Below, piece after piece: positions 8,533 through 20,421 of a DNA stretch of 33,705 bases. The stretch is from a virus (lineage: Duplodnaviria > Caudoviricetes): positions 1-33,705 of the IMG/VR virus record IMGVR_UViG_3300044477_000241; one strand, written 5' to 3'. The translations under genes and the position numbers were made by a program. Each line of letters starts with the position of its first letter. Position 1 is the stretch's first letter. A model generated the notes under the pieces. The model saw only the letters and a list, made by a program, of their open reading frames with translations, was not told the origin of the DNA and ran no database searches.

Positions 8533-8729
8533 ACTAATGCTCCCTTTACGATGGTTAGCGGATGCCCTTTTTCAAGCGCCCACATGATCTCATTATACGC
8601 AGCGATCCATTCATCATCACTCAATTTCGTCGGATCAATGTGATTATAAATCCGAATGAGCGCATTACATTTTCGAATGAAATCCTTTTCCGGATCAGGA
8701 TTTACACCATCGGAATCTAATTTTTTTTT
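8529..8729 (-). CDS. -1 frameshift extension of tail assembly chaperone (GT analogue)
   Basis: A9 run at 8721-8729. The -1 frame is open (LDSDGV...IDPTKLSDDEW...ALV) to a TGA overlapping the tape measure ATG. Missing from the ORF track. Confidence 0.85.
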   Translation of the reverse strand, partial: KKKLDSDGVNPDPEKDFIRKCNALIRIYNHIDPTKLSDDEWIAAYNEIMWALEKGHPLTIVKGALV

Positions 8730-13581: not shown

Positions 13582-14322
13582 TTAGCTAATCTTTGAATGT
13601 CCAACAAGATATAGGGTTCCATCGCTGTTGACGAAGTGCAGGTAATACTTGCTGGATGCTGCAAATGTGAATTCACCGGTGTCGAAACCGCTACCATAGA
13701 TGACCTTCTTAGTCCCGTTGGTTTGCAACTTAAAAAACACGTCGCAACCTTCCGGAGCATTGGTCATGGTGGCATTCAACGTTACGTCGACAGATGCCAG
13801 CGTATCGGTAACATCAATGACGTTTTTGTTCTTGTCAACAGTTACACTGACAACGCCAGCGGCACTTTCAACGAAAATTGATTTCGAAGTAAGAACTGCT
13901 GCAGTAGGAGCTGCTTCAGGATCGAGTCTGAGGTTAGTCAGGTACATATCGCTACCATCATAGGTTAGCTCAAAAATGGCGGTTTGCAAAGCATCCATTG
14001 TGATAGTCTTGCTGATGCCAGGAGCGGTCACAAGTAAATCCTTGTCTGCAACATTACCGCAGTCAATGATAACAATTGCCTTAGCCCCGGGAGTTACCTG
14101 TTCTGCGATCGTAAGAGCAACAGTGAGATCTTCAGACATCGGATCTGAGAGCACAATGATCGTATGCATTTCGCGGATCTCCGCGTTAACAATACCTTCG
14201 ACAGCCTCGGCAGGATCTAAGGTGATGGTTTCATGCACAGGGAAAAGAACATTTTTGTGTTCCTTGATAAATTCCGATAACTTAAAGTTCCCGGAAAAGA
14301 AATGTTTCAAATTCTGCCACAT
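13582..14322 (-). CDS. Putative head decoration/structural protein with two tandem beta domains
   Basis: Lies between protease and capsid; the two halves end in similar motifs (YDGSDMYL / SDGTLYL). Confidence 0.55.
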   Translation of the reverse strand: MWQNLKHFFSGNFKLSEFIKEHKNVLFPVHETITLDPAEAVEGIVNAEIREMHTIIVLSDPMSEDLTVALTIAEQVTPGAKAIVIIDCGNVADKDLLVTAPGISKTITMDALQTAIFELTYDGSDMYLTNLRLDPEAAPTAAVLTSKSIFVESAAGVVSVTVDKNKNVIDVTDTLASVDVTLNATMTNAPEGCDVFFKLQTNGTKKVIYGSGFDTGEFTFAASSKYYLHFVNSDGTLYLVGHSKIS

Positions 14323-14350: not shown

Positions 14351-15502
14351 TTACTGTTTAGGCACACTTCCATATGCCGATTTATAGAGTTTTTCAAAAT
14401 CAAGGCGATCCGGAGAACCAGCGGGAGCGTTGCGCATTGCGGTCAATCTCTGAGGATCCTTCTTCTGATAATCCTCAAATTTCCAGTCCTTACGTTCATC
14501 AGATTTATCTTCATGATGAAGTTGGCCTACGATAGAGGTATACACCATCATCGAGTCCAGGACTTTCTTGGTGTTTTCAAAATCACTTTTCGCCAGGGAC
14601 ATGTAGGTCTCTCTCTGATCAGCGGTAATCTTTTTTGCAGAAATCGCTGAATCAACCAGGACAGCTACTTTATCACCCTGGAGTGATGTGATCTGATTCT
14701 GCAGCTCGATGACCTTGTCATCAACCTGTTTCTTTTCGCTTTTTAGCGATACCATAGAATCAACCATGCGCTGAACTTCAGCGTAGATATTATCTTCAGT
14801 GGCATTGGGATCGAGTTTTACGTCAGCCCGCGCGAGCAGGTCGACGAAACGTTTGGGATCTTTCATGTTTAATTCGAGTTGGTTTTTAAATTGAGTGTTA
14901 AAATTCTTCCAGAGATTGGTGGGGGTATCGATTTTCTCAGGCACAATTAATTCAGGCCCGTCAACGATACCATCGATCAGCCCTGCCGCTAAAGCTTCCT
15001 GAGCGGTAAACCATGTTTCAGTCCCGCGTTTAAACCACGACTCCTGAATCTCCTGATTGGTTTTGCCACAACGTTTCGCATAGATATCAACCAGATCATT
15101 CTTTAATGAATCCAATTGATCGGCGTTGCTTCGTAAGGTATCAGAATCACCGTTGATTTGAGTCGTAGGCAGATGAATCATTAAGCGGCCATACTTGTTC
15201 ATGTATACCTTACGATCAGTAGTCGCACATATAGCACTGCCCATACTTGCTGCTAAGGCATCGATATATAGATCTACCGTTTTCTTACAGGAGCGAATCG
15301 CCGTACGCATCGCGATGCCTTCAAAGATGTCACCGCCTGGTGAATTCACGTGCACCTCTATGACATCATAGGATTTAGCGCATTCGTTCAATGCATTCAC
15401 AAACTCACTTGAGAGACAATCCCATCCTAAGGCGCCATAAACTAATATTTGTGCGACGTTACCCTCTTGTGGTTTTTGAACATCGAAGAACTTTTGTGGC
15501 AT
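14351..15502 (-). CDS. ClpP-type prohead protease fused to scaffold
   Basis: VNSPGGD, ALAASMGS (Ser), MIH (His), ETWFTAQEA..AGLID; coiled-coil C-terminal half. Confidence 0.92.
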   Translation of the reverse strand: MPQKFFDVQKPQEGNVAQILVYGALGWDCLSSEFVNALNECAKSYDVIEVHVNSPGGDIFEGIAMRTAIRSCKKTVDLYIDALAASMGSAICATTDRKVYMNKYGRLMIHLPTTQINGDSDTLRSNADQLDSLKNDLVDIYAKRCGKTNQEIQESWFKRGTETWFTAQEALAAGLIDGIVDGPELIVPEKIDTPTNLWKNFNTQFKNQLELNMKDPKRFVDLLARADVKLDPNATEDNIYAEVQRMVDSMVSLKSEKKQVDDKVIELQNQITSLQGDKVAVLVDSAISAKKITADQRETYMSLAKSDFENTKKVLDSMMVYTSIVGQLHHEDKSDERKDWKFEDYQKKDPQRLTAMRNAPAGSPDRLDFEKLYKSAYGSVPKQ

Positions 15503-15690
15503 AGGCTTAAAAATTTGCGGGTTAAATGAATTTGGAAATGCAAAAATGTATCAATAATTAATGCCGTGCAAATCGTATTTTAGTGACTATCAAAATTTAA
15601 GCACTCATTATATCTATAAATATAATGACTATTATTTAATTAAAAAATTGCGCGCGCGAAAGCTAAGTTTGCAGAATTAAATTTTTGCAT
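15503..15690. promoter_or_regulatory. Divergent late promoter region
   Basis: TAAGTTTG on + (15664-15671) and near-consensus CATTTTTG on - (15541-15548), between two diverging structural operons. Confidence 0.65.
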
Positions 15691-16161
15691 ATGCCTCTAA
15701 AAAAATTATTAGGTCGACAGACCAAAAAAAAGAAACTGGCTAAGATTCTGTACATAAATAGCCATCTTACACAGAAGGAAATTGCAGCGCAGGTGGGCGT
15801 TACAGAAGCTACCCTATCAAAATGGGTAAACGATCCGACTGAGAAGTGGAGCGTTCAAAAGGCTTCTTTCACGATTACCAGACAACAGGAGCTTCTTCGA
15901 ATTTATGCGCAAATTACAGCGCTCAACACAGCGATTGAAGAGCGCGAGAGAGGCGCTCAGTTTCCGACAAATTCTGAAGCCGATATCTTGAGTAAGCTCA
16001 GCAAGGCCGCCAAGGCTCTCGAGACGGATACAACAGTGAGTGAAATTATCAACGTAGCGATTGGGATCACTGAATACATTCAGGCGATCGATCCAATTAA
16101 GGCGAAAGAATTCTCTGCATTGTTAGACGGTTACATATCTTCCAAAATGTCGCAATTATGA
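15691..16161 (+). CDS. Terminase small subunit (HTH)
   Basis: LTQKEIAAQVGVTEATLSKW HTH; overlaps the terL start. ATG at 15691 preferred over TTG at 15685. Confidence 0.8.
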   Translation: MPLKKLLGRQTKKKKLAKILYINSHLTQKEIAAQVGVTEATLSKWVNDPTEKWSVQKASFTITRQQELLRIYAQITALNTAIEERERGAQFPTNSEADILSKLSKAAKALETDTTVSEIINVAIGITEYIQAIDPIKAKEFSALLDGYISSKMSQL

Positions 16162-18256: not shown

Positions 18257-19552
18257 ATGGCCCAAAAACAAGCAGGGGAAACACCCTCTGAGATAATTAT
18301 TCAAAAGATTGATATACGGCAAGTTGTACGCAATTCGATCGATATTCAATCCTGGCGTAACGCACTACGCAGCGCCGAGAGCACTACTCGGCCACAAAGA
18401 ATCCTACTTTATGACCTCTATGATGAACTGCTGCTGGATGGCCGCCTGAGCTCCGCGATCGACAAACGCAAAAGAGCCGTAACCAATACACCCATGACCT
18501 TCACCGTGGACGGTGAAGAAATGCCGGAGATCATGACCCTGATCCAGTCGCCCTGGTTTTCCGATATGATCTCAGATATACTCGATTCAAGATTTTATGG
18601 CCACAGCCTGCTGGAGTTTACTCAGTTCCTTCCGGATAGCATCGATTATACGCTGATTCCACGTAAACACGTGGTTCCGGAAACGCACCGTGTAACCTGG
18701 ATGCAGGGCGGAAGCGAAGGTGTTTCCTGGGATGAAATGCCCTATTATAACTATACACTGGAGGCGGGTAAGGAACGGGATCTTGGGCTAATCCTTAAAG
18801 CTGCTCCCTATGTCATTTTCAAACGTAACGGATTTTCTGATTATGCTCAGTTCTGCGAGATCTTCGGAATACCGATGCGAATCGGTAAGTACAATCTTCA
18901 GGATCCGGAAGGTCGACAGGCTCTCTTGCAGGCACTCAACGAAGCCGGATCAGCGCTTAGCATGGTCATTCCTGAAGGAACCGACGTAGAAATCAAAGAA
19001 CCATCCAATGTCACCGGAGGCAACACGCTATTCTCGACACTGATCGATCAGTGCAACAAAGAGATCTCCATTATCATTCTCGGCCAGACCCTGACTACGG
19101 AACAGGGAACCAATGGAGCGCGCAGTCTTGGTGAAGTACACATGGATGTCGAAGAGCAGATCCACATGGACGATCGCCAGTATATTGTGAATTGGCTGAA
19201 CTACGAATTTAAGTGGCTCCTGGAATTGCACGGTTATAAGGTCACCGGTGGCGCATTCGACTTTGTCGATATAGAGCGAGTAGATCTGGGTAAGCGGATC
19301 GAGATTGACACGAAATTGAATGATGTGATCTACATCGATCCGGATTATTTCTATGAGAAATATGGAATTCCTAAACCTGACAACGCCGACGCTATGAATA
19401 AGGAAATGCGCGCACGCAAACTGAATCCGCTGGGTGCATTCAACCCGGCACAGGTACCACAACAGCAGCAGCAATCATCGAAACAAGATCCGAAGGCAAC
19501 AGCCTGGCTTAAATCCTTCAGACGTTTTTTTCCGGACGGCCCTCGAAGATAA
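18257..19552 (+). CDS. Portal protein (Mu gp29 / DUF935-like)
   Basis: FYGHSLLE, FCEIFGIPMRIGKY and EISIIILGQTLTT...SLGEVH motifs. Confidence 0.92.
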   Translation: MAQKQAGETPSEIIIQKIDIRQVVRNSIDIQSWRNALRSAESTTRPQRILLYDLYDELLLDGRLSSAIDKRKRAVTNTPMTFTVDGEEMPEIMTLIQSPWFSDMISDILDSRFYGHSLLEFTQFLPDSIDYTLIPRKHVVPETHRVTWMQGGSEGVSWDEMPYYNYTLEAGKERDLGLILKAAPYVIFKRNGFSDYAQFCEIFGIPMRIGKYNLQDPEGRQALLQALNEAGSALSMVIPEGTDVEIKEPSNVTGGNTLFSTLIDQCNKEISIIILGQTLTTEQGTNGARSLGEVHMDVEEQIHMDDRQYIVNWLNYEFKWLLELHGYKVTGGAFDFVDIERVDLGKRIEIDTKLNDVIYIDPDYFYEKYGIPKPDNADAMNKEMRARKLNPLGAFNPAQVPQQQQQSSKQDPKATAWLKSFRRFFPDGPRR

Positions 19553-19559
19553 GAGGGCC
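19525..19559 (+). promoter_or_regulatory. Programmed -1 ribosomal frameshift signal (portal to MuF)
   Basis: T TTT TTT heptamer in portal phase, 6-nt spacer, GGCCCTC/GAGGGCC stem-loop; the -1 frame is open into MuF. Confidence 0.8.
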
Positions 19560-20421
19560 CTATGATCACCTGACCGCCTTCCCGGATCTATATCCTGCAT
19601 GTCCCCATTGCGGTGGCCTGCATCATACGTTCACCAATACAGTGGGCGATGATCTTCTGAAGGAACTGGATAAGCAAACTTCAAAGGTTGCAAGAATGAT
19701 ATACCAGGGGACACTTCCTGAAGACTTCGTCATCGACGAAACCATGACGCGTCAGATTGCGCTGAAGCTTCGCGATGCCATTCTGGAGGGATTTGGCAAG
19801 GCAGGCTCAAACATCGATTATAACACACCGGACGGGGCTGTAATCCGCAACCTGGAAGAGTCGGTCTATTCCTTCAGCGCGGCAAAGAATTACAACCAAC
19901 TGCGTGACATGACCAGCGCATTGCTCAACGATGATATGGTCGTTCGCTCGTTCCGGGAATTCAAAGAGATCTGCAATAATATCAGCTATCAGTATAACAG
20001 CTCCTGGCTGTTGAGTGAGTATAACACTGCGATCGCATCCGCTCAGACCTCTGCCCGGTGGAATGAATACCAGGAATCAGCGCAGGAGATGCCCTACCTT
20101 CAGTACGTCACTGCCGGAGATGACCGGGTGAGAGAAGAACACGCAGAGCTGGATGGAATCATACGACGCATCGATGACGAGTTCTGGGACACGTATTATC
20201 CTCCCAATGGATATAACTGCCGGTGTGATGTAATACAGTTACCTGGTGAGGCCACGGAGGCCGATATCGAGAAGTACACTCTTCCAGTACTCGATCCAAT
20301 CTTTGCCACCAATTTAGCAAAGACCGGCGTGATCTTTCCAACGGATCATCCCTATTATACCGATCTCCCTGCCGAGGTCGCAGCGAAGGCTAAAGAACTC
20401 TTCAATAAAGACAGCGAATGA
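19531..20421 (+). CDS. Minor head protein MuF / SPP1 gp7-like (probably translated as a portal fusion; alternative GTG start 19642)
   Basis: EYNTA, YVTAGDDRVREEH..LDG and PPNGYNCRC motifs; frame open from 19513. Confidence 0.88.
   Translation, partial: SGRPSKIRGPYDHLTAFPDLYPACPHCGGLHHTFTNTVGDDLLKELDKQTSKVARMIYQGTLPEDFVIDETMTRQIALKLRDAILEGFGKAGSNIDYNTPDGAVIRNLEESVYSFSAAKNYNQLRDMTSALLNDDMVVRSFREFKEICNNISYQYNSSWLLSEYNTAIASAQTSARWNEYQESAQEMPYLQYVTAGDDRVREEHAELDGIIRRIDDEFWDTYYPPNGYNCRCDVIQLPGEATEADIEKYTLPVLDPIFATNLAKTGVIFPTDHPYYTDLPAEVAAKAKELFNKDSE

Follow-up and report, generated by a model that had tools for sequence, protein, structure and literature searches.

In dnaX, the long form (tau) is read in frame 0, the short form (gamma) arises when a −1 shift brings ribosomes to a nearby stop, and both enter the same oligomer; we know of no dnaX case in which the same cassette works with the opposite polarity. 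A related arrangement is found in T7 gene 10, where part of the head protein gains a C-terminal domain through a poly-T slip site. Among phages, the −1 frameshift of the tail chaperones G and GT (Xu, Hendrix and Duda 2004) is cited in passages of PMC4378225, PMC7911831, PMC12846349 and PMC2628397, the first of which names T TTT TTC as a G/GT slip site and the third of which also names the T7 gene 10 capsid-extension frameshift. Such frameshifts as appear in the accessible text of these four papers, and of PMC5576092, PMC12135933, PMC10367356, PMC11699363 and PMC5512222, belong to tail chaperones, the T7 coat protein or spanins. MuF/SPP1 gp7 and the MuF polymorphic toxins are treated in the accessible text of PMC5576092, PMC11699363 and PMC5512222, where MuF is a gene of its own; the word “frameshift” occurs 0 times in the main texts of these three papers, and PMC5512222 mentions MuF and portal domains fused to effector domains. 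We found no published account of a portal-MuF frameshift in either polarity, though subscription journals and supplements may hold one.

Here we analyse the junction of the portal and MuF genes in a Mu-like phage, starting from a stretch of 33,705 nt of viral DNA (the window, by which we mean the whole stretch). Like G/GT as described in the sources above, the junction has an X XXY YYZ heptamer towards the 3′ end of a gene for morphogenesis and a −1 frame lacking a start, and the short and long forms would share their N-terminus. G/GT sits between the genes for tail tube and tape measure; here, in contrast, the slip site belongs to a gene of the head module, the portal, the extension is MuF and the products would be parts of the virion; in addition there is a covarying hairpin, and some relatives have the polarity reversed. 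The comparison with T7 gene 10 differs in that the gene here is the portal rather than the capsid, and in that the T7 extension does not constitute a conserved gene family of its own. The logic of dnaX tau/gamma is shared with the relatives of inverted polarity described below, but dnaX encodes a bacterial clamp loader and not a phage head protein.

Methods

We gathered 251 loci by taking the best 80 matches per collection by likeness to the MuF of the window, which together with the window make 252 records; the set leans towards this MuF and is not a random sample. MuF lies in the −1 frame relative to the portal in 169 records, is fused in frame in 31, lies in +1 in 16 and is in the same frame but unfused in 8; the remaining 28, with no portal in the stretch, were left out. 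Cutting at 80% portal identity gave 165 clusters (125 with MuF in −1, 23 fused, 14 in +1 and 3 same-frame unfused). A further 79 loci (L254–L332), of which 76 are fused and 3 incomplete, were gathered with a Porphyromonas fusion. A strict heptamer is a sequence of the form X XXY YYZ, in register; at the end of the portal gene it was scored within the last 12 codons. A MAFFT DNA alignment of ten junctions placed the stem arms wrongly, and anchored tests were used for the arms instead; pair types per locus were read off the fold computed for that locus and serve for description only. Trees were made with FastTree, and with IQ-TREE in a smaller run.

Results

The phage and its portal-MuF junction

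The window encodes a Mu-type transposase, a transposition ATPase, a terminase, a Mu portal and an adaptor (Pfam and PHROG profile matches), and sequence searches find its kin in Bacteroidota. By these matches the phage is a Bacteroidota Mu-like transposable phage, the label Bacteroidota coming from its kin. The head genes lie in two divergent blocks (14351-16161), the minus-strand block holding protease, capsid and tail genes and the plus-strand block terminase, portal and MuF. A 246-aa ORF (13582-14322, minus strand) flanked by the genes for the Clp-type head protease and the major capsid protein has no Pfam or PHROG match. The phage also has a second recoding site, of the G/GT tail chaperone type, at 8720-8728 on the minus strand: a 112-aa gene (9055-8717, minus strand) upstream of the tape measure gene has the 3′ end ATA AAA AAA AAT TAG, and the −1 frame past it runs for 64 more codons (to about 8529), its stop overlapping the tape measure ATG.

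The features of the portal-MuF junction are collected in Table 1. Two solved portals match the portal of the window (E 1e-20 and 2e-16), and the gene 3′ of it matches Phage_Mu_F with 70.9 bits against a curated cut-off of 29.6; this ORF ends with the MuF domain and, unlike the MuF polymorphic toxins, has no effector extension or toxin domain at its C-terminus. Portal codons 423-425 (CGT TTT TTT) contain the heptamer. The stem arms, GGCCCTC (19538-19544) and GAGGGCC (19553-19559), enclose an 8-nt loop holding the portal TAA (19550-19552), which unshifted ribosomes would reach 6 codons past the heptamer. A TAA at 19510-19512 closes the −1 frame upstream, and with entry predicted at 19531 (S-G-R-P...) the predicted products are 431 aa (49.4 kDa) and 425 + 296 = 721 aa (82.3 kDa). 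An initial annotation had proposed this heptamer, spacer, stem, loop stop and −1 frame, and every coordinate was confirmed on the sequence; recomputing both product lengths gave the same values, and its claim that MuF has no ATG before 19744 (residue 78) holds in the −1 frame. The ATG at 19562 is in another frame and starts an ORF of only three codons.

Table 1. Features of the portal-MuF junction, in window coordinates.
Feature	Position	Strand	Evidence
Portal gene (Portal_Mu/DUF935), 431-aa zero-frame product	18257..19552	+	PF06074, E 6e-86
Q-rich low-complexity linker past the portal domain	19451..19495	+	Pfam match ends at residue 371
−1 open frame, encodes MuF, 302 codons	19513..20421	+	PF04233, 1.9e-19
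T TTT TTT slip site, in the register of the portal codons	19525..19531	+	Sequence, cluster comparison
6-nt spacer CCGGAC	19532..19537	+	
7-bp GC-rich hairpin, predicted stimulator	19538..19559	+	Folding, covariation
LY and CxxC/H segment in the −1 frame, 5′ of the first GTG	19588..19623	+	Low model confidence
First in-frame GTG, MuF residue 44; possible secondary start, not conserved	19642..19644	+	
MuF domain modelled with confidence (−1 frame residues 46-301)	19648..20415	+	AlphaFold model

When only the window is considered, the hairpin has a z of −2.63 in 39 nt, with 0/200 shuffles equally stable, and none of the other 26 in-frame strict heptamers counted with it in the 30 ORFs of the window is followed by a more stable one; windows of 69-121 nt around it are not unusual (z −0.84, +0.48 and −1.20). 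By itself the hairpin is therefore modest evidence, and the strong evidence for a signal is comparative. A GC-rich stem beside a T run at the end of a gene might also call to mind an intrinsic terminator, but the T run lies 5′ of the stem, 6 nt off, and on the minus strand it is A's that follow the stem. Runs of at least 5 T in the 8 nt past the stem, as a terminator would have, were found in 1/42, 0/27 and 0/20 cases, and we attach next to no probability to this reading.

Conservation of the heptamer, frame and hairpin

MuF is in the −1 frame relative to the portal in 125 of the 142 unfused clusters. Of these −1 clusters, 104/125 have a strict heptamer in the last 12 portal codons, compared to 1/17 of the remaining unfused clusters; the rate in 3469 interior windows is 5.3%. 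T TTT TTC is the commonest (40 clusters), followed by A AAT TTT (22), A AAA AAG (11), A AAA AAA (10), T TTT TTT (9) and A AAT TTC (8), with 13 clusters lacking a site. The signal is kept among portals sharing only about 50% identity or less, and the swapping of different slippery words at one position is hard to attribute to protein sequence.

Structure downstream of the heptamer follows the same pattern. When 40 nt are folded, the mean MFE is −12.5 and −13.0 kcal/mol at offsets 0 and +5 versus about −5 upstream, and z is below −2 for 69/108 slip sites versus 12/157 interior heptamers. Stems of at least 6 pairs, which cluster at a spacer of 5-6 nt, form from a locus's own arms in 39/47 clusters of the T class (peak spacer 6) and 21/31 of the AAT class, compared to 15% and 19% when arms are swapped, and 0/2000 arm-swap permutations, which ignore relatedness, reach the observed pairing. 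Of the 21 clusters in the A-run class only 2 have a hairpin, so that another mechanism is likely there. The alignment test suggested in the initial annotation thus gave a frame that is not random, a conserved heptamer and covarying arms. Its TTTTTTN motif describes the T class, but is replaced elsewhere by A AAT TTY and A-run sites; likewise the hairpin covaries in the T and AAT classes but is not a feature of the A-run class.

The same fusion could be encoded by the mRNA itself if RNA polymerase slipped in the T run and added a U, and the T7 homopolymer of the window lends this some plausibility. Such slippage is associated with homopolymers of about 9 nt or more, a length that the window run does not reach but that is found in the A-run class, where runs are 9-12 nt in 18/21 clusters and come without the hairpin; this class may use polymerase slippage. 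In the T class, however, the T run is only 6 nt in 38/47 clusters, and the 31 clusters of the AAT class use A AAT TTN, which is not a homopolymer. A hairpin at a constant distance 3′ of the slip site is, moreover, a ribosomal feature, being still untranscribed while the polymerase sits on the run. We consider transcriptional slippage very unlikely as the explanation for the window.

Several further observations were made at these sites. Just 5′ of the slip site in the window is an amphipathic-looking segment, AWLKSFRRFF (19502-19531), and a Trp within 12 residues before the site is found in 15/47 T-class clusters and in 1/31 and 0/21 clusters of the other classes. Hankyphage p00 (BK010646.1, L007:3769-3817) has T TTT TTC, a 6-nt spacer and a GCCCCG/CGGGGC stem, located 14 codons 5′ of the portal stop and beside an annotated overlapping ATG, a combination that weighs against the frameshift reading; in its relative L011 the signal is retained and the overlapping ATG is absent. 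In the Hankyphage virion mass spectrometry data (PMC12135933, S6 Table), MuF is listed in the 250-85, 85-30 and 30-10 kDa slices, but the 250-85 kDa slice also lists small proteins, Gam and the adaptor among them, so that its presence there does not point to a fusion.

The start of MuF

An ATG near the portal stop is found in 8/84 slip clusters versus 21/33 non-slip clusters, a tally covering the 117 of 142 unfused clusters that could be anchored. At least 82 codons before the MuF core, 82/102 slip clusters have no ATG and 52/102 have no ATG, GTG or TTG, the other 50/102 having some such codon. In the nearest proteins, conservation of the −1 frame begins at the slip site. An LY motif marks the portal end in 16/23 separate-gene clusters, which include Hankyphage, itself carrying the signal, versus 3/103 slip clusters; a looser form of it lies past the shift in 87/103 slip clusters, counted over a longer window and with no null computed.

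The AlphaFold model of the −1 frame is confident for residues 46-301 and poor for residues 1-40 (pLDDT 38-60), and with such values the N-terminal CxxC segment is unsupported as part of the MuF fold. Neither sequence search nor Foldseek found a solved relative of MuF. As the model becomes confident at about residue 41-46, a start at GTG 19642 would yield the whole MuF core; a start at ATG 19744 would drop a confident helix. It is thus conceivable that MuF is made separately from GTG 19642, the heptamer and hairpin being incidental or serving mRNA stability or coupling. This GTG lies directly upstream of the first helix modelled with confidence (46-65), it has an A at −3 and at −6, as is favoured in Bacteroidota starts, and relatives exist in which MuF is a separate gene starting with ATG. 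However, an ATG, GTG or TTG is found at the equivalent position in 20/102 slip clusters when 28 are expected by chance, and separate initiation does not explain why several heptamer types occur in register, why the −1 frame prevails or why fused genes, described below, retain the signal. Judging from these comparisons the MuF start codon is not conserved, and we regard separate synthesis as an unlikely account of the junction, with some independent initiation at GTG 19642 being possible in this genome on the strength of the model.

In-frame fusions and a proposed inverted polarity

Three Porphyromonas phage records have one CDS of 852-853 aa annotated as portal, and most of 70 longer proteins hold both portal and MuF domains; these in-frame fusions match the predicted fusion length. 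Fused genes are common enough (also 23/165 clusters) to raise the question of whether the window simply contains one whose T run has recently lost 1 nt or was misassembled, and single-base changes in runs do interconvert the two forms, as the +1-frame stops of A-run fusions illustrate. Yet L067, L092 and L012, which are the closest relatives and share about 50% identity, have the same split, stop and hairpin, and a public contig (X1), possibly the source of the same DNA, has the same letters with no indel; a sequencing run, X2, spans 19128-19389 and so ends short of the site. A broken fusion is accordingly highly improbable.

In all 76 fused loci gathered with the Porphyromonas fusion, which make 20 clusters at 90%, a strict heptamer stands in register (for instance at L254:2763-2769) and is followed, past a spacer of 6 nt, by a stem that starts with GC. 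The heptamer is T TTT TTC in 18 clusters; in the other 2 it is C CCT TTT and the stem differs. The −1 frame reaches a stop 17-20 codons on in 17 clusters and 32-36 codons on in 3. The heptamer pattern is found at 4/15,660 other codons. Given how these genes use codons, the synonymous choices that build it have a log10 P of about −13 (18 clusters), a value that treats the clusters as independent though all are in one clade. That the 20 clusters form one clade points to long retention rather than 20 events. Two fusions outside the clade (L205 and L246) also retain a T-type site and stem, and on the portal tree fused and split forms alternate with 15 changes, at least 11 of them forced (7 and 5 in the smaller tree).

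In the fused clade a shift would yield a short portal, which is the inverse of the polarity predicted for the window. Retention of the signal in both designs suggests that a mixed portal ring is under selection, and both short and long forms seem to be needed. The portal-MuF fusion proposed in the initial annotation is supported, but as in-frame fused relatives keep the signal too, the mixture, rather than the fusion as such, seems to be the point; its further suggestion, that recoding sets how many MuF domains are built into the ring, is an inference.

The −1 tails of the inverted clade often end in W-x-x-P-H before the stop. The motif recurs in the tails (identity 0.42 versus 0.28 in frame 0; 16/17 rows), but the comparison was anchored on the motif itself, and the recurrence is only suggestive. 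The C CCT TTT sites (L328:2661-2667 and L329:2676-2682) have a different, long stem, and their −1 tail contains an IDQLYYG segment resembling the end of separate-gene portals.

For all 23 fused clusters of the main set the picture is less clear. An in-register heptamer is found in 18/23 (null 65/361), with 17/23 and 15/23 in the other registers, and a −1 stop within 6 codons in 10/18 (null 44%), little nearer than expected by chance. A +1-frame stop directly follows the run in 6/18 overall, including several A-run fusions. Inverted polarity is not established for the A-run fusions, as a kept signal and a recent single-base change are indistinguishable there.

Discussion

The heptamer and hairpin at the portal-MuF junction are very probably a programmed −1 ribosomal frameshift signal, by which two portal forms would be made from one mRNA. 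The comparisons provide an in-register heptamer, a covarying 3′ structure in the T and AAT classes (not in the A-run class) and an open, conserved −1 frame without a conserved start of its own. In the proposed mechanism, the hairpin would pause the ribosome and two tRNA-Phe would slip back together on U UUU UUU; shifted ribosomes would go on to make the 721-aa portal-MuF, and unshifted ones would terminate at the stop in the hairpin loop. Short and long portals would then co-assemble in the portal ring, and MuF would enter the head as a covalent tail of the portal. In the inverted clade the shift would instead end the protein after a short tail (about 20 codons in most clusters) to give the short portal, selection apparently keeping the mixture whichever form is the default.

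In many relatives the tail would also carry a C-terminal effector domain into the head. MuF has a C-terminal extension of more than 60 aa in 73/97 slip clusters, and 38/72 of the extensions scanned match CdiA_C, LPD3, Gln_amidase or ADP-ribosyltransferase families. With so many MuFs bearing effector extensions, the switch would also set effector dose. Three longer MuF homologues (P0156, P0163 and P0164) have a precomputed PF14890 domain, which we take to be intein splicing. In Mu, the C-terminus of the portal is trimmed during head assembly, and trimming of this kind would offer MuF a route of release. We lean slightly towards the broader proposal that the junction is a reversible recoding switch used in both polarities, with every ring mixing short and MuF-bearing subunits and recoding dosing the effectors.

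If the shift has an efficiency e, the fraction of long subunits would be e in one design and 1−e in the other. The existence of two polarities would then imply that e is near one half, that assembly or processing evens out the difference, or that copy number is loosely constrained. Should these proposals be correct, the portal would join the list of recoded phage genes, and annotations would need correcting for many phages from gut, oral and environmental sources, including Hankyphage and the Porphyromonas phages, whose annotated MuF starts, or lone “portal” CDS, would be in error or only partial. They would also give a concrete answer to the question of how MuF, and the effectors borne by it, enter the head and in how many copies.
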